Assembly: GCA_964482735.1 (NCBI GenBank)
Contig: CAYZYV010000004.1
Span: 65,737 to 129,736 of the forward strand
Source of the DNA: an uncultured Candidatus Saccharibacteria bacterium
GTDB lineage: Bacteria > Patescibacteriota > Minisyncoccia > Phycocordibacterales > UBA9973
Reading direction: 5' to 3'
DNA length: 64,000 bases
Translations under genes and position numbers: made by a program
Shown: positions 4,389 through 62,654 of the stretch, piece after piece
How the letters are laid out: each line of letters starts with the position of its first letter
Numbering within the stretch: position 1 is the first letter of the stretch
Notes under the pieces: generated by a model
The model's database searches: none
Told to the model about the DNA's origin: nothing
Seen by the model: the letters and a program-made list of their open reading frames with translations, nothing else

Positions 4389-4402
4389 ATCCGCCCGTAG
4401 CT
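4389..4402 (+). repeat. 14-nt direct duplicate of the tRNA-Lys 5' end (atccgcccgtagct), 61 nt upstream of the real copy
   Basis: Identical 14-mer at 4389..4402 and 4464..4477; the second copy spans the tRNA start. Confidence 0.6.
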
Positions 4403-4465
4403 GTTTTGGTAGGTCTAAAGCTTCTACTGGTCACAGTGTTAGTTTTTGAAATAATGTTTATATAT

Positions 4466-4538
4466 CCGCCCGTAGCTCAGATGGTAGAGCAGCTCCCTTT
4501 TAAGGAGATGGTCGTAGGTTCGATTCCTACCGGGCGGA
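4466..4538 (+). tRNA. tRNA-Lys (anticodon TTT)
   Basis: Cloverleaf: acceptor CCGCCCG/CGGGCGG, D-arm GCTC-AGATGGTA-GAGC, anticodon loop CTTTTAA, T-arm GTAGG-TTCGATT-CCTAC, discriminator A. CCA is not encoded. Confidence 0.85.
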
Positions 4539-4576: not shown

Positions 4577-4738
4577 TGGTCCGCCCGAGCAAGCAAACTG
4601 TTTTGCTTGCGTGTAGGAATCGAACGGCGGAGTCATATTTTTTCACCAGAGAAAATAGACGAGCGGGTGACCAGACAAAACTTTTTGACGAAAAAGTTTT
4701 AGTCGAGGTCGATAAGCGTACTCGCGGTCCTACCGGGC
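4577..4738 (-). ncRNA. Candidate structured small RNA, copy A (paralog of 13083..13230); tRNA-like 3' end with encoded ACCA
   Basis: A 68-nt core (4667..4734) is about 95 percent identical to 13083..13150 in inverted orientation. The 5' GGTAGGA can pair with the 3' TCCTAC next to a GTTCGATTCC T-loop-like motif. The 3' tail is hairpin + CGGGCGG + ACCA. The locus sits between terminators. Confidence 0.35.
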
Positions 4739-4828
4739 TATTATCTCAAAAAACAGTGATCTTTAGGATAATTCTAGTTTGAGCAAGCAAATTTAAAAAA
4801 GGATAAATATAAATTATATTTATCCTTT

Positions 4829-9807: not shown

Positions 9808-10620
9808 TTGATGAATACCAAAGGAGATTTCTGGACAAAAATATATTATAATAAAAAAGTGAAAAAGGAATCTCTAAAACCTAATAAAGCCAAAAAAGGA
9901 TTTACCCTCATTGAACTTCTTGTCGTCATCGCTATCATCGGAATACTTTCTGCTGTGGTTATTGCTTCGCTAAACAGTGCTCGAGAAAAGGGGAAGGTTG
10001 CAATGATCAAATCTACTCTCAAGAACATGCAGTCTCAAGCTGAATTAACTTACACAACAAACGGAGATTATTCTACTTTATATAACTCTTCTACCTATGA
10101 TTGTATTGGTTCATTAACTAAAATGGCAGAAAGTTTAACTAATCAAGGAGTAACGGTTAAATGCTATTCTCGTAACAGTTCGTCCCAAAACGATGTCTAC
10201 CTCCGTTTCGGTGCCACTGCTATCATATATAACACTAATAGTTTCAAAGCATGGTCTACAGACCAAAACGGAGTAGCAACTTGGGATCAAAAAGGGGTAG
10301 ACTCGACAGGTGCATATGTTGATGCAGATATTACCTCGGGTATGACATTAGCTATTTCAAACTCCGCTTGTGCTAAAGCAGGAGGAAGACTTCCATCTCT
10401 TGAACAATTGTTTACTCTTAGCAGGGCTTATTATACCGCTTCTGGAAATACATCTTACAAACCCACTAGTGTTGGTTTTAAAGCAAGTTATTACTGGTCT
10501 TCTGTGCTTTCTCCACTTCCATCTGATAATTCACAAGCATACTACGTTAACTTTGGTGCTGATACTAGTATTGGCACTAGTCCTGTTACAAATGGTGGTT
10601 ACGTTCGCTGTGTTAGATAA
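9808..10620 (+). CDS. Type IV pilin-like protein with C-terminal DGR-target-type lectin/FGE-like domain (paralog 1; no cognate TR in window)
   Basis: Prepilin motif KG-FTLIELLVVIAIIGILSAVV. The C-terminus GGRLPSLEQ...YYWSS...GGYVRCVR matches the tail of the DGR2 target. Confidence 0.7.
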   Translation: MMNTKGDFWTKIYYNKKVKKESLKPNKAKKGFTLIELLVVIAIIGILSAVVIASLNSAREKGKVAMIKSTLKNMQSQAELTYTTNGDYSTLYNSSTYDCIGSLTKMAESLTNQGVTVKCYSRNSSSQNDVYLRFGATAIIYNTNSFKAWSTDQNGVATWDQKGVDSTGAYVDADITSGMTLAISNSACAKAGGRLPSLEQLFTLSRAYYTASGNTSYKPTSVGFKASYYWSSVLSPLPSDNSQAYYVNFGADTSIGTSPVTNGGYVRCVR

Positions 10621-10762
10621 AAAATAGCGTTTACTTTAAAGTAAATTTCTGTTATTATCTATTTATTCAAAAACTGTCAGTGTCTCGACATTTTGGATTT
10701 CAAACGAAAAATCAAAAAAGTTTTATTTTATAAAGTTTAGTTAATAATATAATCACAACAAT

Positions 10763-13037: not shown

Positions 13038-13082
13038 TTAAAAGACTGGGTAGATCCCAGTCTTTTAAGTTAGGGGGATACT

Positions 13083-13230
13083 GGCAGGACCGCGAGTATA
13101 CTTATCGACCTCGACTAAAACTTTTTCGTCAAAAAGTTTTGTCTGGTCACTCTAAGCCGTGCTTGGCCAAGCAATAAGCCAGCTCCTCCGACCTGGGTCG
13201 GAGTCAGGTTCGATTCCTGCGGATATCAGT
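13083..13230 (+). ncRNA. Candidate structured small RNA, copy B (paralog of 4577..4738)
   Basis: The 68-nt core matches copy A. 5' GGCAGGA pairs with 3' TCCTGC next to GTTCGATTCC, a compensatory T/C-A/G change relative to copy A. It lies between the terminators at 13039..13068 and 13231..13279. Confidence 0.35.
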
Positions 13231-13279
13231 AAAACAGTAAGACCCAAATATCTTCATATCTGGGTCAAACTGTTTTATG
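13231..13279. terminator. Bidirectional terminator hairpin
   Basis: gtaaaacagtaa-gaccca-loop-tgggtc-aaactgtttta nested inverted repeats. Confidence 0.5.
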
Positions 13280-13280
13280 T

Positions 13281-13397
13281 GATCCCGGCAGGAATCGAAC
13301 CTGCATCATAACTTCCGCAAAGTTACGTCCTATCCCCGCCCGACTGGAACGACCACTAATCTTGTCCAGTCGTTCGGGCGGGCATTGAATGACAACG
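13281..13397 (-). pseudogene. Partial tRNA-Arg-like copy (D-arm to 3' end, lacks 5' acceptor strand) carrying a 48-nt GC hairpin insert in the D-loop
   Basis: Anticodon arm TAACT-TTGCGGA-AGTTA, T-arm GCAGG-TTCGATT-CCTGC, and 3' CGGGATC-A. Insert 13336..13383 ccgcccga...tcgttcgggcgggc. Confidence 0.5.
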
Positions 13398-13401
13398 CTT
13401 G

Positions 13402-13473
13402 TGCTCTCAGTAGGAATCGAACCTACATCATAACTTCCGCAAAGTTACGTTCTATCCATTGAACTATGAGAGC
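13402..13473 (-). tRNA. tRNA-Arg (anticodon GCG as read from the loop)
   Basis: Perfect cloverleaf on the minus strand: GCTCTCA-TA-GTTC-AATGGATA-GAAC-G-TAACT-TTGCGGA-AGTTA-TGAT-GTAGG-TTCGATT-CCTAC-TGAGAGC-A. Confidence 0.75.
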
Positions 13474-13706
13474 AACTTATTTTTTAAATATTTTCGACCA
13501 GAAGCGGTCTTCCAATATTTTTCTTTTTCTACTGCCTCTTTCAGGGTTGAACACTTTTCAAAATAAACTAAGTCAAACGGAGCATAATGCTTGTTGGACT
13601 TTGTTATTTTACTATTATGTTCAGACAGTCTCTTTTCTAGATTTGAACAGAAACCTTTATAGTAAAAGTCTAAAAATTTACTTTTTATGACATATACATA
13701 ATACAT
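13464..13706 (-). CDS. Mini GIY-YIG nuclease domain protein (80 aa)
   Basis: YVYVIKS...YYKGFCSNLEKRLSEHN is a GIY-YIG core. The start codon lies inside a partial tRNA copy and the stop overlaps the tRNA-Arg 5' end. Confidence 0.7.
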   Translation of the reverse strand: MYYVYVIKSKFLDFYYKGFCSNLEKRLSEHNSKITKSNKHYAPFDLVYFEKCSTLKEAVEKEKYWKTASGRKYLKNKLLS

Positions 13707-13783
13707 AAGTTACATCCTATTCCCGCCCGACTGGAACGACTACCAATCTCGTCCAGTCGTTCGGGCGGGCATTGAATGACTGG
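13700..13783 (-). repeat. Second partial tRNA-Arg-like fragment (D-arm to anticodon stem) with the same 48-nt hairpin insert
   Basis: agttacatcctattc + ccgcccgactggaacgactaccaatctcgtccagtcgttcgggcgggc + attgaatgac; the insert is at 13717..13764. Confidence 0.5.
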
Positions 13784-13868
13784 ACCATTGAAGTTAATTT
13801 ACACTATCAAACCAATTATCGCAAGCCGATAACAAAAAAGGCTGGCTTAAGCCAGTCTTTTTTGTTAT

Positions 13869-17244: not shown

Positions 17245-17345
17245 TTGTAAATTATACCTTAAATATATAATTTAAGGTATTTGAGTTTTCTGATACTTTA
17301 TTTCTTTGCGGGTCATGTGAGTTCAGTACCCACAATACTAATGTT
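17245..17345 (-). promoter_or_regulatory. Promoter/leader with near-perfect palindromic operator (accttaaatatataatttaaggt); paralog at 18156..18250
   Basis: A ~90-nt direct repeat lies upstream of two consecutive minus-strand genes and contains a TATAAT-like box overlapping a 23-bp palindrome. Confidence 0.45.
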
Positions 17346-17381
17346 AATAAGGATATCTTAGCACATTTTGAAGAATATAAA

Positions 17382-18155
17382 CTAGCCCTGTGAGTCTTGC
17401 TTATTTTCAATAAATTGTTTAAAACCCTCTATGTCTTGATTAGATCCTAATATATGAATTTGTTCTGATGAGTTAAATACTGCGATATCATCACCAAGAG
17501 TACCTTGTTCTACCACGTTTTTAATTATCGTACCATCAAACTCATTTTTTCTAGCATACTCTGCAATTTCATCAGTGGAAATATCTGACACAACAACCTC
17601 ATCAACTGTATAAAATTGTTTAGCATTCTGGTATTGTTTGGTTTTAAATATATCTGATTTTGATGAAAAATATTCTGACTTTATATCAAATTCATCAGTT
17701 GCATCTAATCCAGTTTCTTTATCAACAACCTTATACCCAACTCCCTGATAATTTGCCCCTTTAAAATCTACCTCGTAAGGATTTGTAATATCTATGATTA
17801 CTGAATATATTTTTTCACCCCCCTCATACGAAGTTCCAAGTGGAATACTTTTAAAATATTGTTTTGCTACTTCATAGTTTTTAGTAAAAAAGACAACATT
17901 ATCAGGAGTCCCATACGCTTTAGATTTTATGTCTTCAGATGTATTATCAAACTCATCAAATGTGCTAGCACTGCCATGATATACGATATCTTTTATCTTA
18001 CTCTCTGGGAAAATAGTATCTAAATATTCAGAATATTGTTCTTTTGTCCCAATTTGTACTAATTCTGGATTTTGTTCAAATACAAAATCCACACCCTCTC
18101 TAATGTTAGGTTTTTCTACTCTATTTTCTTGGGTTATTTTTGGCAATCCTTCCAT
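17382..18155 (-). CDS. Hypothetical protein
   Basis: 257-aa ORF with no confident family assignment. Confidence 0.45.
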   Translation of the reverse strand: MEGLPKITQENRVEKPNIREGVDFVFEQNPELVQIGTKEQYSEYLDTIFPESKIKDIVYHGSASTFDEFDNTSEDIKSKAYGTPDNVVFFTKNYEVAKQYFKSIPLGTSYEGGEKIYSVIIDITNPYEVDFKGANYQGVGYKVVDKETGLDATDEFDIKSEYFSSKSDIFKTKQYQNAKQFYTVDEVVVSDISTDEIAEYARKNEFDGTIIKNVVEQGTLGDDIAVFNSSEQIHILGSNQDIEGFKQFIENKQDSQG

Positions 18156-18250
18156 ATATGTAAATTATACCATAAATATATAATTTGAGATACTTGAGTC
18201 TTCCGATACTTTGTTTTTATTGCGGGGATACTCGTGTTAGGACTTTTCAC
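18156..18250 (-). promoter_or_regulatory. Second copy of the palindromic-operator promoter/leader
   Basis: About 75 percent identical to 17245..17345, including the palindrome and the -10 region. Confidence 0.45.
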
Positions 18251-26705: not shown

Positions 26706-26737
26706 AAAGAAGTTTATCTGCTTTTTGCAATTTGTGC

Positions 26738-26765
26738 CCCCGCGAGGAATCGAACATTACATGTT
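26738..26765 (-). repeat. Duplicated 3' fragment of tRNA-Arg(TCT) (T-loop plus acceptor 3' strand)
   Basis: gtgcccccgcgaggaatcgaac repeats 26879..26901 exactly, and no upstream tRNA body accompanies it. Confidence 0.5.
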
Positions 26766-26875
26766 CAGTGCAGGTTATTGATATTTTATTTCGCTAGCTC
26801 ATAAAATATCTAATTAACCTTTTCGATTCCTTGGACCACAAAAAAATTACCGGCATAAAACCGATAATTTTTTCA

Positions 26876-27083: not shown

Positions 27084-27115
27084 CACGGGTCGCTACAACT
27101 GAGCTAACCGCGCGT
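27084..27115 (-). repeat. Duplicated 5' fragment of tRNA-Val (acceptor plus D-arm)
   Basis: gggtcgctacaactgagctaaccgcgcg resembles tRNA-Val positions 1-30, with no matching 3' half. Confidence 0.45.
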
Positions 27116-27181
27116 TATTTTGTTGGTAATTGAATCATATCATATTTTCAAAAAAACTCAATAATGTGCTAGGATGTCGTT

Positions 27182-42516: not shown

Positions 42517-42591
42517 TACCACTCTATAAAAATAGTTTGACCATGAGCCTTTTAGACCACACAGCTTGGATTCTAGAAGGTTTTTTGTATT

Positions 42592-42645
42592 AACAGCCGA
42601 GGTCGGACCTCGTACGAGGTCCGACCTCGGCTGTTATCCACAGGT
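42592..42645. repeat. GC-rich REP-like perfect palindrome (44 bp) plus conserved atccacaggt tail; second copy at 62584..62654
   Basis: aacagccgaggtcggacctcgtacgaggtccgacctcggctgtt is a perfect inverted repeat. Confidence 0.6.
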
Positions 42646-42781: not shown

Positions 42782-42804
42782 AAAGATTATGTTATAATAA
42801 AAAA

Positions 42805-43593
42805 GTGAAAAACAAACTCTTAAAATCAGATAATAAAACTACAGGGTTCACTTTAATTGAACTCTTAGTCGTTATCGCAATCATTGGAATTTTATCAGCC
42901 GTAGTTGTCGCTTCGCTAAACAGTGCAAGAGAGAAAGGAAAGATTGCTTCTATTAAATCCACCTTAAAACAACTATATAACCAAGCAGCCATCAATCAAG
43001 CAGAATATGGTAGTTTTGCAAACTCTAATACATCATATTCAGATTTAACTTGTACAGGCCCAGGAGGTAATCTAGCTAAAATAGCTCAACCACTCATTGA
43101 TCAAGGAATTATAGTTAAATGCTTTAGTTTTAATAGTCCGGCATCTGGAGATTTGTCCCTTCGCTTTGCTGCAACCGCTCTTATATATGATACAAATGAA
43201 CTCAAAGCATGGTCAGTAGATGAAAACGGTGTAGTTAAATGGGATACTCATGGAGTTAATACTGATGGGACAACAAGATCAACAGATATAACCATGGCAT
43301 GGAAGGACCTAAATGATATCACTATAGCTATGAACGCTTGTGCGAAAAATGGTGGTCGTCTTCCTTCTGTGGAACAATTTCGAACCCTGTTTCATTCATG
43401 GTACTCATCTACTGGCAATGTGTCATATCTTCCAATACCAACAGAAGGTTCTTTTTCAAATGGTTACTACTGGTCATCAACTTCTGTACCGCTTTGGCCA
43501 GAGACTAGATCATATTCTTTGATCACAGAGAGCTCAAATATAGGATTCTCTGGTTCGTTGAGTTCTGGTTATTATGTCCGTTGTGTTAGATAA
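42805..43593 (+). CDS. Type IV pilin-like protein with C-terminal lectin/FGE-like DGR-target-type domain (paralog 2; no cognate TR found)
   Basis: GFTLIELLVVIAIIGILSAVV prepilin motif; C-terminal GGRLPSVEQ...YYWSS...GYYVRCVR. Confidence 0.7.
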   Translation: MKNKLLKSDNKTTGFTLIELLVVIAIIGILSAVVVASLNSAREKGKIASIKSTLKQLYNQAAINQAEYGSFANSNTSYSDLTCTGPGGNLAKIAQPLIDQGIIVKCFSFNSPASGDLSLRFAATALIYDTNELKAWSVDENGVVKWDTHGVNTDGTTRSTDITMAWKDLNDITIAMNACAKNGGRLPSVEQFRTLFHSWYSSTGNVSYLPIPTEGSFSNGYYWSSTSVPLWPETRSYSLITESSNIGFSGSLSSGYYVRCVR

Positions 43594-43609
43594 AAACATG
43601 CTTACATAT

Positions 43610-45726: not shown

Positions 45727-45756
45727 CGATCAGTTCTTTTAATTTGGTTAATTCTA

Positions 45757-46536
45757 TTGTATAATAAAACTATGATTAAGAATTATAAAAACACTAATAA
45801 TGCCTTTACTCTCATCGAACTCCTCGTCGTCGTCGCAATCATCGGAATACTCTCCTCAGTAGTCATCACATCACTAAACTCTGCAAGAGAAAAGAGCAAG
45901 ATTGCTTCTATTAAATCCACCTTAAAACAACTATACAACCAAGCTGCCATCAATCAAGTAGAAAATGGTAGTTTTACTGGATCTAATCCTTCATATTCAA
46001 ACTTAACCTGTTCTGGCAACTTAGCTCCAATAATTAAACCACTAGAAGACCAGGGAATAATAGTTAAATGCTTTAGTTTCTATGGAAGTCCCTATGGAGG
46101 AAATTATACAGGAGACGATTATAACAGATTCGCCGCCACGGCCCTCATCTACGACACAGGAGAACTCAAAGCATGGTCTGTAGATGAAAACGGTGTAGTT
46201 AAATGGGATACACAAGGAGTAAACTCAACAGGAGCTTTTGTTACCCCTGACATTACAGCCTCATGGACTAATGCTCAAAACAGATGTGCTTTATCTGGTG
46301 GACGTCTCCCTTCTATTGAACAATTGAGAACTCTATCTCATGCATGGTATTCTAAAGCTAATACTGATGGAGATGTAGACCCTTGGGCACCTCTTGGTTT
46401 CGTAGCAAGCATCTACTGGTCTTCTACCCCCGTTCCGTCGTCGCCTACTACGCTCGCTTACGGCCAGATCATGGCCTATGGTAGCTTGACCTCCTACAGT
46501 CAGACTCTCGGGTACTATGTTCGCTGTGTTAGGTAG
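45757..46536 (+). CDS. DGR2 variable (target) protein: type IV pilin-like N-terminus plus C-terminal lectin/FGE-like domain carrying VR2
   Basis: AFTLIELLVVVAIIGILSSVV prepilin motif, and a C-terminal ...YWSSTPVPSSPTTLAYGQIMAYGSLTSYSQTLGYYVRCVR encoded by VR2. Confidence 0.8.
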   Translation: MYNKTMIKNYKNTNNAFTLIELLVVVAIIGILSSVVITSLNSAREKSKIASIKSTLKQLYNQAAINQVENGSFTGSNPSYSNLTCSGNLAPIIKPLEDQGIIVKCFSFYGSPYGGNYTGDDYNRFAATALIYDTGELKAWSVDENGVVKWDTQGVNSTGAFVTPDITASWTNAQNRCALSGGRLPSIEQLRTLSHAWYSKANTDGDVDPWAPLGFVASIYWSSTPVPSSPTTLAYGQIMAYGSLTSYSQTLGYYVRCVR

Positions 46537-46556
46537 TAGTGTGTTCGCCTAGAATT
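46391..46556 (+). repeat. DGR2 variable repeat (VR2), which extends 20 nt past the stop codon (IMH-like region)
   Basis: The 166-nt alignment to TR2 has 19 mismatches, and every one of them is at a TR adenine. Confidence 0.85.
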
Positions 46557-46565
46557 CATTATTAC

Positions 46566-46630
46566 ATCCCGACTTTATGTCGGGACATTCTCTCTCGAAT
46601 GACTCCGACGTAAGGAGGAGCATTCGAGAG
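46566..46630. promoter_or_regulatory. Two GC hairpins immediately 3' of VR2 (DGR homing-associated stem-loops)
   Basis: tcccgac-tttat-gtcggga, and the 12-bp stem ctctctcgaatg...cattcgagagag. Confidence 0.5.
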
Positions 46631-46635
46631 AGGGC

Positions 46636-47076
46636 TTGTCGTTTATGTCTATTTATTCTAATCTTCCAATATACAACAATACATTTTCATTGTTAAAAGA
46701 ACTATACATAAGAGTTCCTAAATTTAGTAAAGAATATAAATATCTTCTAGGGGAGAAAATGATTAAATGCTGTGTGGACAGTCTTGTGTTAATTAATCAA
46801 ATTAGTTCAAGTAAAGAAAGGGTCGAAAGAATAAATCTTTTGATGAGATTAGAAGATAACATGAATGTACTAATGGTGCATGTCCGAATAGCTAATGAAC
46901 TCAATCAATTAGTTAAAAAGGATAATTATTTCTTTTTATCTCAAAAAATAATAGAAATTTTAAATCAAGCAGAAAATTGGAAAAAGTTTCTTCAGAAGAA
47001 GAAATGTTCCCAGAATTGCACCTCTGATGGTAGTGCAAGTGTGGATAAAAAAATTCCTCTCCCCACCCCTTGTTAA
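46636..47076 (+). CDS. avd: DGR accessory variability determinant (Avd-like) of DGR2
   Basis: 146-aa helical protein located between the target gene and TR2-RT2. The C-terminal IEILNQAENW aligns with the bAvd EVGRILGSW region. Confidence 0.6.
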   Translation: MSFMSIYSNLPIYNNTFSLLKELYIRVPKFSKEYKYLLGEKMIKCCVDSLVLINQISSSKERVERINLLMRLEDNMNVLMVHVRIANELNQLVKKDNYFFLSQKIIEILNQAENWKKFLQKKKCSQNCTSDGSASVDKKIPLPTPC

Positions 47077-47135
47077 AAGATCTATCACTTTAGACAAGGG
47101 ATAAGAGGTTATCATGATTGAGTTGGGGAGACTAG

Positions 47136-47301
47136 CTCTTGGTTTCGTAGCAAACAACTACTGGTCTTCTACCCCCGTTCCGTCGTCGCCTACTACGCTC
47201 GCTTACAACCAGAACATGAACAATGGTAACTTGAACAACAACAGTCAGACTAACGGGAACTATGTTCGCTGTGTTAGGTAGAAGTGTGTTCGCCTAGAAT
47301 T
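47136..47301 (+). repeat. DGR2 template repeat (TR2)
   Basis: Intergenic between avd2 and RT2. It is rich in AAC codons (NNQNMNNGNLNNNSQTNGN) that appear mutated in VR2. Confidence 0.85.
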
Positions 47302-62583: not shown

Positions 62584-62654
62584 AACAGCCGAGGTCTTTC
62601 CTCGTACGAGGTCGGACCTAGTACGAGGTCCGACCTCGGCTGTTATCCACAGGT
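62584..62654. repeat. Second copy of the GC-rich REP-like palindrome, with an internal expansion
   Basis: aacagccgaggtc-[tttcctcgtacgaggtcggacctagtacgaggtccgac]-ctcggctgttatccacagg. Confidence 0.6.

Follow-up and report, generated by a model that had tools for sequence, protein, structure and literature searches.

The subject of this report is a tRNA-Arg(GCG) locus in a stretch of 64,000 nucleotides from an uncultured Candidatus Saccharibacteria bacterium (contig CAYZYV010000004.1, positions 65,737 to 129,736; hereafter the window). Here, intact and partial tRNA-Arg sequences are interleaved with two GC-rich hairpins and a small open reading frame (ORF) that encodes a GIY-YIG nuclease domain. 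All coordinates are window positions, and the locus, with each of its features, is read on the minus strand.

The locus begins with a promoter-like region (13796..13824): TTGCGA at 13824..13819, a 17-nt spacer, and TGnTAAATT, of which TAAATT occupies 13801..13796. It now lies 5' of both a tRNA 5' fragment and the ORF. The fragment, GGTCCAGTCATTCAATG (13770..13786), comprises positions 1-17 of the resident, H-type tRNA-Arg(GCG) with two substitutions; it matches an uninterrupted H-type gene at 15/17 positions, versus 11/17 for the intact, D-type gene farther along the locus. Three elements follow: a 48-nt palindrome or hairpin, HP2 (CCCGCCCGA...TCGGGCGGG; 13722..13769), the left end of an inserted block; a decaying copy of tRNA positions 18-32 (AATAGGATGTAACTT; 13707..13721), 13/15 identical to H-type; and, with its ATG directly 3' of that copy, the 80-amino-acid (aa) GIY-YIG ORF (13464..13706). 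The same layout, an 18-32 copy and then ATG, is found in related loci L011, L016, and L019-L025.

The ORF stop codon reaches 10 nt into the intact D-type tRNA-Arg(GCG) (13402..13473; acceptor GCUCUCA/UGAGAGC; Rfam, 70.8 bits). This is the sole intact GCG copy in the window, and it sits within the inserted block. Beyond it lie an 8-nt spacer, caagcgtt (13394..13401); a copy of tRNA positions 7-17 (GTCATTCAATG; 13383..13393), which has a derived A in common with the upstream fragment; a second 48-nt palindrome, HP1 (13335..13382), the right end of the block; and positions 18-72 of the resident H-type tRNA-Arg(GCG), its 3' part from D-loop to discriminator (13280..13334), 55/55 identical to an uninterrupted H-type gene. 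An intrinsic-terminator-like hairpin (13241..13266) stands 3' of the resident tRNA end. The upstream fragment (13786..13707) and the downstream partial copy (13393..13280) have a 74-nt direct repeat in common, at 93% identity. ARAGORN and Rfam also call a tRNA-Arg at 13279..13350, at 31.3 bits, because its 3' two-thirds are true tRNA. We reject this second call as a real gene: it lacks the acceptor 5' strand, and the hairpin fills its 5' part.

A preliminary description of the window had recognised the intact tRNA-Arg and the 80-aa ORF with its overlapping stop codon, and both are borne out. It had also reported two partial tRNA fragments, each with the same 48-nt insert in the D-loop. Both fragments are present and each has a 48-nt hairpin; the upstream fragment is longer than described, running from 13786 with the acceptor 5' strand included, and HP1 and HP2 agree at 45/48 positions, with three loop differences. 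The start codon, said to be embedded in anticodon-stem sequence, instead abuts a truncated anticodon stem (GTAACTT followed directly by ATG). The observation is therefore real with minor corrections. What escaped notice is that the fragments are the halves of one resident gene, and that the intact tRNA is a different allele.

Both points emerge from relatives, found via homologues of a neighbouring 158-aa protein, whose contigs were compared with the window. Five of them (L221-L225) are syntenic with the window over kilobases, with a DNA identity of about 70-73%. All five have an uninterrupted H-type tRNA-Arg(GCG), GGTCCCGTCGTTCAATGGATAGGACG...CCTGCCGGGATCA, at which both the GIY-YIG ORF and the hairpin are absent. 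In L223, the tRNA lies directly 3' of the 158-aa gene, the place held by the cassette in the window. Positions 3038-3095 of L223 match window positions 13335-13278 at 58/58, and the same holds for L221, L222, and L224. On the other side, leader plus tRNA positions 1-17 (L223 3016-3038; window 13792-13770) match at 21/23, and a promoter segment (L223 2981-2993; window 13826-13814) at 13/13. A promoter-like motif, TTGCG-N17/18-TA(A/G)ATT, is conserved 5' of the uninterrupted tRNA in all five relatives, at the same distance as in the window. This conservation suggests that 13796..13824 serves as a promoter, although a stricter sigma-70 consensus scan did not call it.

Since the relatives contain an uninterrupted H-type gene, each of the two fragments is one half of the resident gene. 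The resident tRNA-Arg(GCG) is broken at 17|18, at two conserved D-loop G residues, which we take to be G18 and G19 of standard numbering, forming the tRNA elbow. The inserted DNA is 13769..13335, 435 nt bounded by the two hairpins, and consists of hairpin, 18-32 copy, ORF, intact D-type tRNA-Arg, 7-17 copy, and hairpin. In the downstream copy the hairpin is inserted without duplicated tRNA bases (11 + 48 + 55 = 114 nt). The D-type and H-type tRNAs are identical at 62/72 positions; the 10/72 differences include compensatory changes in the acceptor stem. The D-type resembles tRNA-Arg of other lineages (L023, L025), and is therefore read as imported with the cassette.

The closest relative locus, L019, has an ORF with 76% amino-acid identity to that of the window, and differs hardly at all from the window in its downstream terminator and its convergent tRNA-like element. 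Its order is H-type 1-17, hairpin, decayed 18-32, ORF, a D-type tRNA identical to that of the window, and two tandem hairpin-bearing D-type copies, the last of which turns H-type within the T arm and ends in CCTGCCGGGATCA. The insertion is thus of the same kind as in the window, with a different right-hand junction, as repeated recombination between tRNA-derived repeats would produce. Occupied (window, L019) and empty (L221-L225) alleles of one site therefore both exist in related genomes.

Misassembly, which the preliminary description had raised against itself, is ruled out: 10 contigs from separate metagenomes show the arrangement gap-free, at 97.5-100% identity, and five of the ten cover most or all of the compared 861-nt region.

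The ORF is a stand-alone minimal GIY-YIG domain of the Slx1/UPF0213 branch; nuclease activity is predicted, as is the substrate. Its match to Pfam PF01541 scores 58.1 bits against a cut-off of 22.6 (E=1.1e-15) and covers residues 1-73 of 80, and no C-terminal DNA-binding region (NUMOD, zinc finger, or helix-turn-helix) was found. Residues Y5, Y16, G18, R26, H30, N31, and E62 (as in the window ORF) are invariant in 24 homologues. Homologue lengths range from 76 to 109 aa and are mostly 78-80. A profile search of PDB places the UPF0213 proteins BH0048 and EF2693 on top (structures 1zg2, 7e-10, and 1ywl, 2.5e-9), followed by eukaryotic SLX1 chains (1.5e-5 to 1.3e-4); no I-TevI or UvrC chain appears at E<=0.01. 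The "homing-type" label in the preliminary description does not suit this bare catalytic domain. Against nine homologues, nonsynonymous divergence (pN) is 0.16-0.26 and synonymous divergence (pS) 0.58-0.96, with synonymous sites saturated. The ORF is therefore maintained by purifying selection. Within the 435-bp block it is the sole ORF of at least 60 aa with a domain match, and searches of NCBIfam and PADLOC gave it no match and hence no defence-system assignment.

The protein family is large: a profile search of 50%-identity cluster representatives returned 24,153 proteins at E<=1e-3, and 6,606 clusters at E<=1e-10. Many entries (representatives P0116-P0264) are 95-125 aa long, with the domain starting at residue 20-45; their N-terminal extensions are probably gene-calling artefacts that read through an upstream tRNA fragment and palindrome. 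A few entries hold two copies of the domain, which suggests tandem elements.

Folded as DNA, HP1 and HP2 reach -14.6 and -16.5 kcal/mol (z = -4.2 and -5.2 against shuffled controls). In a regular-expression scan, the motif CCYGCCYG...CRGGCRGG occurs within 90 nt 5' of the ATG in 31/82 loci, and loci labelled Levybacteria, Berkelbacteria, Chlorobiota, Nitrospira, Bacteroidales, and Planctomycetales share one and the same 20-nt perfect palindrome, CCTGCCTGCCGGCAGGCAGG. The palindrome is kept across ORFs merely ~45% identical. Within the close clade, its asymmetric inner part occurs in both orientations: one in the window, L011, and L024, the other in L016, L019-L021, L023, and L025. A 16-mer scan of metagenomes yielded ~17 true tRNA-Arg contexts; about three-quarters of the matches listed are chance matches in GC-rich DNA. 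Rfam 15 holds nothing that matches the hairpin at E<=5, and only tRNA families are matched at the locus. Introns of group I and of group II likewise gave no Rfam match, at the gathering threshold or at E<=5, except for a 14.6-bit noise match outside the locus; an intron or a known RNA family was accordingly rejected as a candidate for the hairpin and ORF region.

The preliminary description had derived the hairpin from the acceptor stem of the nearby tRNA-Lys, and seen in it a module that moves between tRNA contexts together with a nuclease. The second half of that idea stands, in that hairpin and small nuclease gene do recur together in tRNA contexts; the first does not. CCGCCCG occurs eight times in the window (0.5 expected), and every occurrence is either in one of the two hairpins or in the surroundings of tRNA-Lys. 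Hairpin and acceptor have 7 nt in common and no more, and the CCCGCCCG...CGGGCGGG stem is conserved across the element family, in Bacteroidota and beside transfer-messenger RNA (tmRNA) genes included. The likeness to the local tRNA-Lys is therefore most likely coincidental, as judged from a comparison that covered the window's tRNA-Lys gene only. A further CCGCCCG, taken for the same travelling module in one copy ("copy A") of a small RNA (sRNA)-like repeat, belongs to a partial copy, in inverted orientation, of the 3' end of tRNA-Lys. The earlier interpretation was thus half right.

A scan of one genome per species found 456 relatives of the ORF, of which the best 80 loci were kept for survey. 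Homologues at 65-83% identity are all ~80 aa long. On every readable contig among these, the ORF lies directly 5' of a same-strand tRNA-Arg, and the 5' part of that tRNA is copied upstream of the ATG, split by the CCCGCCCG...CGGGCGGG palindrome. Linkage to tRNA-Arg holds for 17/17 evaluable loci among the 19 closest (L019-L037): the tRNA is directly 3' in 16, and 171 nt downstream in L027. Across the survey, a tRNA on the same strand begins between -20 and +45 nt of the ORF end in 39/80 loci, and every tRNA within 45 nt downstream of an ORF shares its strand. The partners are mostly tRNA-Arg (five anticodons), along with tRNAs for Leu, Glu, Pro, Asn, Ser, Gln, Thr, and Val, nine identities altogether. 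Most of the 39 tRNA-linked loci also bear a duplicated piece of tRNA, interrupted in a loop by a CCYGCCYG...CRGGCRGG palindrome.

A tmRNA gene takes the place of the tRNA, 60-250 nt downstream of the ORF, in four further loci. In the candidate phyla radiation (CPR) loci L053, L069, L080, and L096, the GIY-YIG ORF is 5' of a tmRNA gene. A palindrome lies between the two genes in L053, L069, and L080, and abuts the tmRNA 5' GGGG in L069 and L080; none was found in L096. By eye, the gene preceding the ORF in L069 and L080 looks like SmpB at its C-terminus. The palindrome is inside a tRNA copy only at the tRNA loci, in contrast to the tmRNA loci.

Several layouts recur. The common one, type A, reads [leader + tRNA 1..x] [palindrome] [tRNA x+1..y] ATG-ORF [leader + intact tRNA]; alignment of the tRNA to the region upstream of the ORF puts x in the D-loop (positions 12-23) and y between 24 and 59. 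The leader is duplicated as well in L045, L051, and L057. A mirrored layout (L056, L063, L065, L074, L076) has the intact tRNA first, then the ORF, then a partial or full-length copy with the palindrome in its anticodon or T loop. Other loci with the intact tRNA upstream have the palindrome in the D-loop (L129, L132, L133, L141, L166). Hairpin-bearing partial copies flank the ORF on both sides in L102, L108, L123, and L177; in the last of these, the D-loop palindrome is of the CCCGCCCG type and the T-loop palindrome of the CCTGCCTG type. Decay products are also present: remnants without an ORF (L148, and L139, which appears to retain the last ORF codons), tandem hairpin arrays (L019, L138), and an ORF interrupted by a stop (L052). 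These complete a life-cycle picture of the element.

Bacteroidota ORFs are 61-65% identical to the window ORF, versus 47-49% for those of other CPR lineages (Levybacteria, Berkelbacteria). Two ORF copies are found on different contigs of one metagenome-assembled genome in two instances (L035/L036, L038/L039). Beside the ORF in L011 stands an intact tRNA with exactly the sequence of the empty sites' uninterrupted H-type gene (compared with L223), and similar loci are alike in this.

Together, these results suggest, with a probability that we put at about 0.6, that the resident tRNA-Arg(GCG) has been split in its D-loop by a 435-bp selfish cassette, one of a large family that crosses phyla. The window's cassette would have three parts: the GC-rich imperfect palindrome at both ends of the block; the 80-aa nuclease of the Slx1/UPF0213 branch, probably transcribed from the captured tRNA promoter; and a foreign-type intact tRNA-Arg(GCG), supplied in place of the destroyed resident gene. 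The general plan of the family appears to be an ORF between two same-strand tRNA copies, one intact and the other disabled by the palindrome, which would be placed precisely, and without target duplication, at a loop-coding position (D, anticodon, or T loop).

Mobility is supported by comparison; how it might come about can be sketched as follows. The nuclease would act on the palindrome, or at tRNA loop positions on DNA that folds into a hairpin or cloverleaf. Any such break might then be repaired via recombination among the tRNA-derived repeats, and repair would copy, or integrate and excise, palindrome plus ORF. Selection for a working tRNA would keep only those products with one intact copy. 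Hypothetically, a circle of the form [tRNA 1-17]-palindrome-[18..]-ORF, recombining on either side of the palindrome, could generate both the type A and the mirrored layouts.

An obvious alternative is classical homing: the GIY-YIG protein would cut the D-arm of an uninterrupted tRNA-Arg, break repair would copy the ORF, and the palindrome would be a scar or spacer that destroys the site. The precise junctions of the presence/absence polymorphism would fit, as would an insertion point within a conserved tRNA motif. However, the hairpin disrupts one copy while, in L011 and similar loci, an intact tRNA identical to H-type stays beside the ORF, so the site may well survive; with such a tRNA, a simple sequence-recognising enzyme would not be self-immune. 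The close clade does stay with tRNA-Arg bearing the GTTCAATGGATAG D-arm, even across phyla, but the targets of the family as a whole cover at least nine tRNA identities and tmRNA. Degenerate copies without an ORF fit a homing cycle too; yet an arbitrary scar would neither keep the CCYGCCYG palindrome across 45%-identical ORFs nor multiply alone. Finally, there is a precedent in the GIY-YIG endonuclease SegB of the phage T4 tRNA cluster (PMC2330249), whereas the present protein is an 80-aa catalytic domain only, in the Slx1/UPF0213 branch rather than with I-TevI and Seg. We consider classical homing improbable and favour action directed by structure or by the palindrome, because the protein has no DNA-binding domain and belongs to a structure-specific branch; because the palindrome is conserved among divergent ORFs and multiplies on its own; because it marks the cassette boundary, in loop-coding positions and without target duplication; and because the partner genes are so varied.

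A host function, about as unlikely as homing in our estimate, would make the protein a cellular factor co-transcribed with tRNA or tmRNA, for example one that resolves secondary structures, with the hairpin leader serving regulation or processing and the duplications being old and vertically inherited. Strong purifying selection at saturated synonymous divergence is what such a factor would display, and its distribution is very wide; within that distribution, however, similarity is higher across phyla than within a phylum, and syntenic relatives do without the cassette, having the plain tRNA only. Strand and position relative to the tRNA are constant, and the captured promoter implies co-transcription. 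Against this, partner tRNAs vary between close homologues, and the hairpin may be 5' or 3' of the ORF, so there is no fixed 5' leader. Two copies on separate contigs of one genome, and copies that lack the ORF or have a stop within it, are also difficult to reconcile with a host gene.

It is very unlikely that the hairpin behaves like an intron, that is, that hairpin-bearing copies are functional tRNA genes or split-tRNA halves processed to mature tRNA. The precise insertion without duplication invites the thought, as do full-length copies whose sole defect is the hairpin (L129, L132, L141, L166). But an intact copy of the same tRNA is adjacent in all loci that can be judged (L138 and L173 end too soon), and hairpin-bearing copies gather acceptor-stem mutations or lose the acceptor 5' strand (window, L019). 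The lack of a group I or group II intron match and the insertion at two conserved D-loop G residues also argue against processing, and to our knowledge bacteria lack the archaeal bulge-helix-bulge splicing endonuclease. As for tandem tRNA duplicates in ordinary decay beside an unrelated small ORF, or an assembly artefact, tandem duplication of tRNA genes does occur, and the locus is a breakpoint in several Logan contigs, but the agreement of ten independent assemblies and the recurrence of ORF, palindrome, and tRNA in dozens of unrelated loci have effectively refuted both.

Several points weigh against a selfish cassette. An enzyme that recognises plain tRNA sequence would cut its own host's copy in loci like L011. 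About 18 of the 80 loci, those of more distant homologues, show neither tRNA nor palindrome nearby. Long-term purifying selection, and a linkage that holds almost without exception in the close clade, would be consistent with a regulatory role or one that benefits the host, too. Cleavage, substrate, and mobility are deduced from sequence comparison, and the model does not account for the origin of the duplicated tRNA, and sometimes leader. IMG/VR viral contigs yielded no close relative to close-clade patterns, a search of limited sensitivity; a phage vector was set aside on the same result.

A bolder extension of the cassette model is possible, though we hold it tentatively and regard it as rather doubtful. 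The palindrome and the Slx1-like GIY-YIG gene could constitute an unrecognised class of autonomous mobile element, ~300 bp in size, moved by structure-specific cleavage of hairpins or cloverleafs at loop positions of tRNA and tmRNA genes, possibly via a circular or single-stranded intermediate, without transposase, integrase, or ribozyme. If so, the unit would be among the smallest protein-coding mobile units known to us, and the stand-alone bacterial GIY-YIG (UPF0213-like) proteins would gain their first proposed function.

Should the cassette model be true, thousands of GIY-YIG genes annotated only as "nuclease family protein" would drive selfish cassettes nested in tRNA and tmRNA loci across phyla. 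Such cassettes would remodel tRNA loci, take tRNA alleles from one lineage to another, and leave behind pseudogene scars that confuse tRNA annotation, at loci where assemblies tend to break. In ultra-small CPR genomes, insertions into essential single-copy tRNA genes would be tolerated, with the cassette bringing or regenerating a working copy. The model would also provide a testable hypothesis for the protein family, and possibly a minimal nuclease with a defined DNA palindrome as its partner.

Other tRNA genes in the window have irregular surroundings as well. A non-coding element of ~150 nt, the sRNA-like repeat mentioned above, is present in two copies, 4578-4745 (+) and 13072-13232 (-), with a 68-nt core that is 96% identical (4667-4734 and 13083-13150). 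Each copy is convergent to a tRNA, tRNA-Lys and the 3' end of the resident tRNA-Arg, respectively, and has at its borders an inverted copy of that tRNA's T-arm and acceptor 3' strand and a partial, direct one; in the element near tRNA-Lys, an additional AT-rich hairpin stands between T-stem and acceptor. L019 contains an equivalent with a different core. These repeats have no Rfam match, and tmRNA or a known sRNA was rejected for them on that basis; they could be a fold-back duplication at tRNA terminators, or a kind of miniature inverted-repeat transposable element. The tRNA-Lys(UUU) itself (4466-4538) has C1:G72 as its first acceptor pair (CCGCCCG/CGGGCGG), unusual for bacterial tRNAs. Partial copies lie upstream of tRNA-Lys (5' part, 4389-4412), upstream of tRNA-Val (5' part, 27096-27146), and downstream of tRNA-Arg(TCT) (3' part, 26734-26757, with an inverted T-loop at 26822-26835). 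All of them lack an ORF and a GC palindrome; lost elements may have left them as scars.

Elsewhere in the window, a segment of 944 nt (17285-18226) matches L222 at 99% identity, against ~70% for that genome otherwise. It encodes a 257-aa protein, whose matching gene in L222 is PF18760 ART-PolyVal, and is flanked by 58-nt direct repeats (17246-17303 and 18159-18216); the whole, 17246-18226, has the appearance of a cassette that was exchanged recently. Two sites 20 kb apart, 42591-42645 and 62584-62654, bear a GC-rich palindromic repeat, TAACAGCCGAGGTCGGACCTCGTACGAGGTCCGACCTCGGCTGTTATCCACAGGT, which is partly tandem at the second. Three or four diverged paralogous gene segments with 60-90% identity (9837-10623, 42783-43596, 45741-47301; repeat families D1-D6, D13, and D15) probably belong to a surface or pilin-like gene family.

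A search of full-text literature, the palindrome sequence included and subscription-only papers outside its reach, did not find this architecture described, and the widespread family of tRNA-nested selfish cassettes is apparently undescribed so far. Several known systems resemble it in part.

The closest relatives of solved structure, the UPF0213 proteins BH0048 and EF2693, are likewise minimal stand-alone GIY-YIG domains. Such bacterial proteins have been classed as Slx1-like minimal domains, with no link to tRNA genes reported (Dunin-Horkawicz 2006, PMC1564403); nor do searchable papers report any function, tRNA linkage, or mobility for proteins of the UPF0213 type. Eukaryotic Slx1 differs in having a RING domain and needing Slx4. 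Branched and stem-loop DNA are cut by Slx1, a specificity that would be compatible with the palindrome as a target.

T4 SegB and I-TevI offer another parallel: a GIY-YIG gene in or among tRNA genes, presence/absence polymorphism, degenerate copies, and spread probably by break-induced recombination. These enzymes have ~200-250 aa, with linker and DNA-binding modules, in contrast to the 80-aa core found here, and their elements neither duplicate tRNA sequence nor contain a conserved palindrome.

Bacterial tRNA genes may also contain group I introns, among them insertions in the same bacterial group, sometimes with endonuclease genes. A 2026 survey of tRNA insertions in Patescibacteria describes group I introns with HNH, PD-(D/E)XK, and LAGLIDADG endonucleases, and does not mention GIY-YIG (PMC13011429). 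Unlike these, the cassette has no ribozyme and its ORF fills the interval; the break is in the D-loop rather than the anticodon loop, and function is kept by a duplicate tRNA rather than by splicing.

Integrative elements that target tRNA genes also insert in the gene, duplicate part of it, and regenerate a functional tRNA. They are larger by orders of magnitude and use an integrase or recombinase, whereas the 435-bp block encodes none. Moreover, it is usually the 3' portion of the tRNA that they duplicate, as attL/attR, in contrast to the D-loop break and whole replacement tRNA of the cassette.

IS200/IS605 elements, integron attC cassettes, and REP/RAYT systems resemble the cassette in its DNA: a conserved, imperfect, bulged palindrome at the boundary, precise insertion without target duplication, a small promoter-less ORF cassette, and palindromes that multiply on their own. 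In place of their HUH/Y1 transposases or tyrosine integrase (IntI), the cassette has a GIY-YIG protein, and its targets are the loop-coding positions of tRNA genes.

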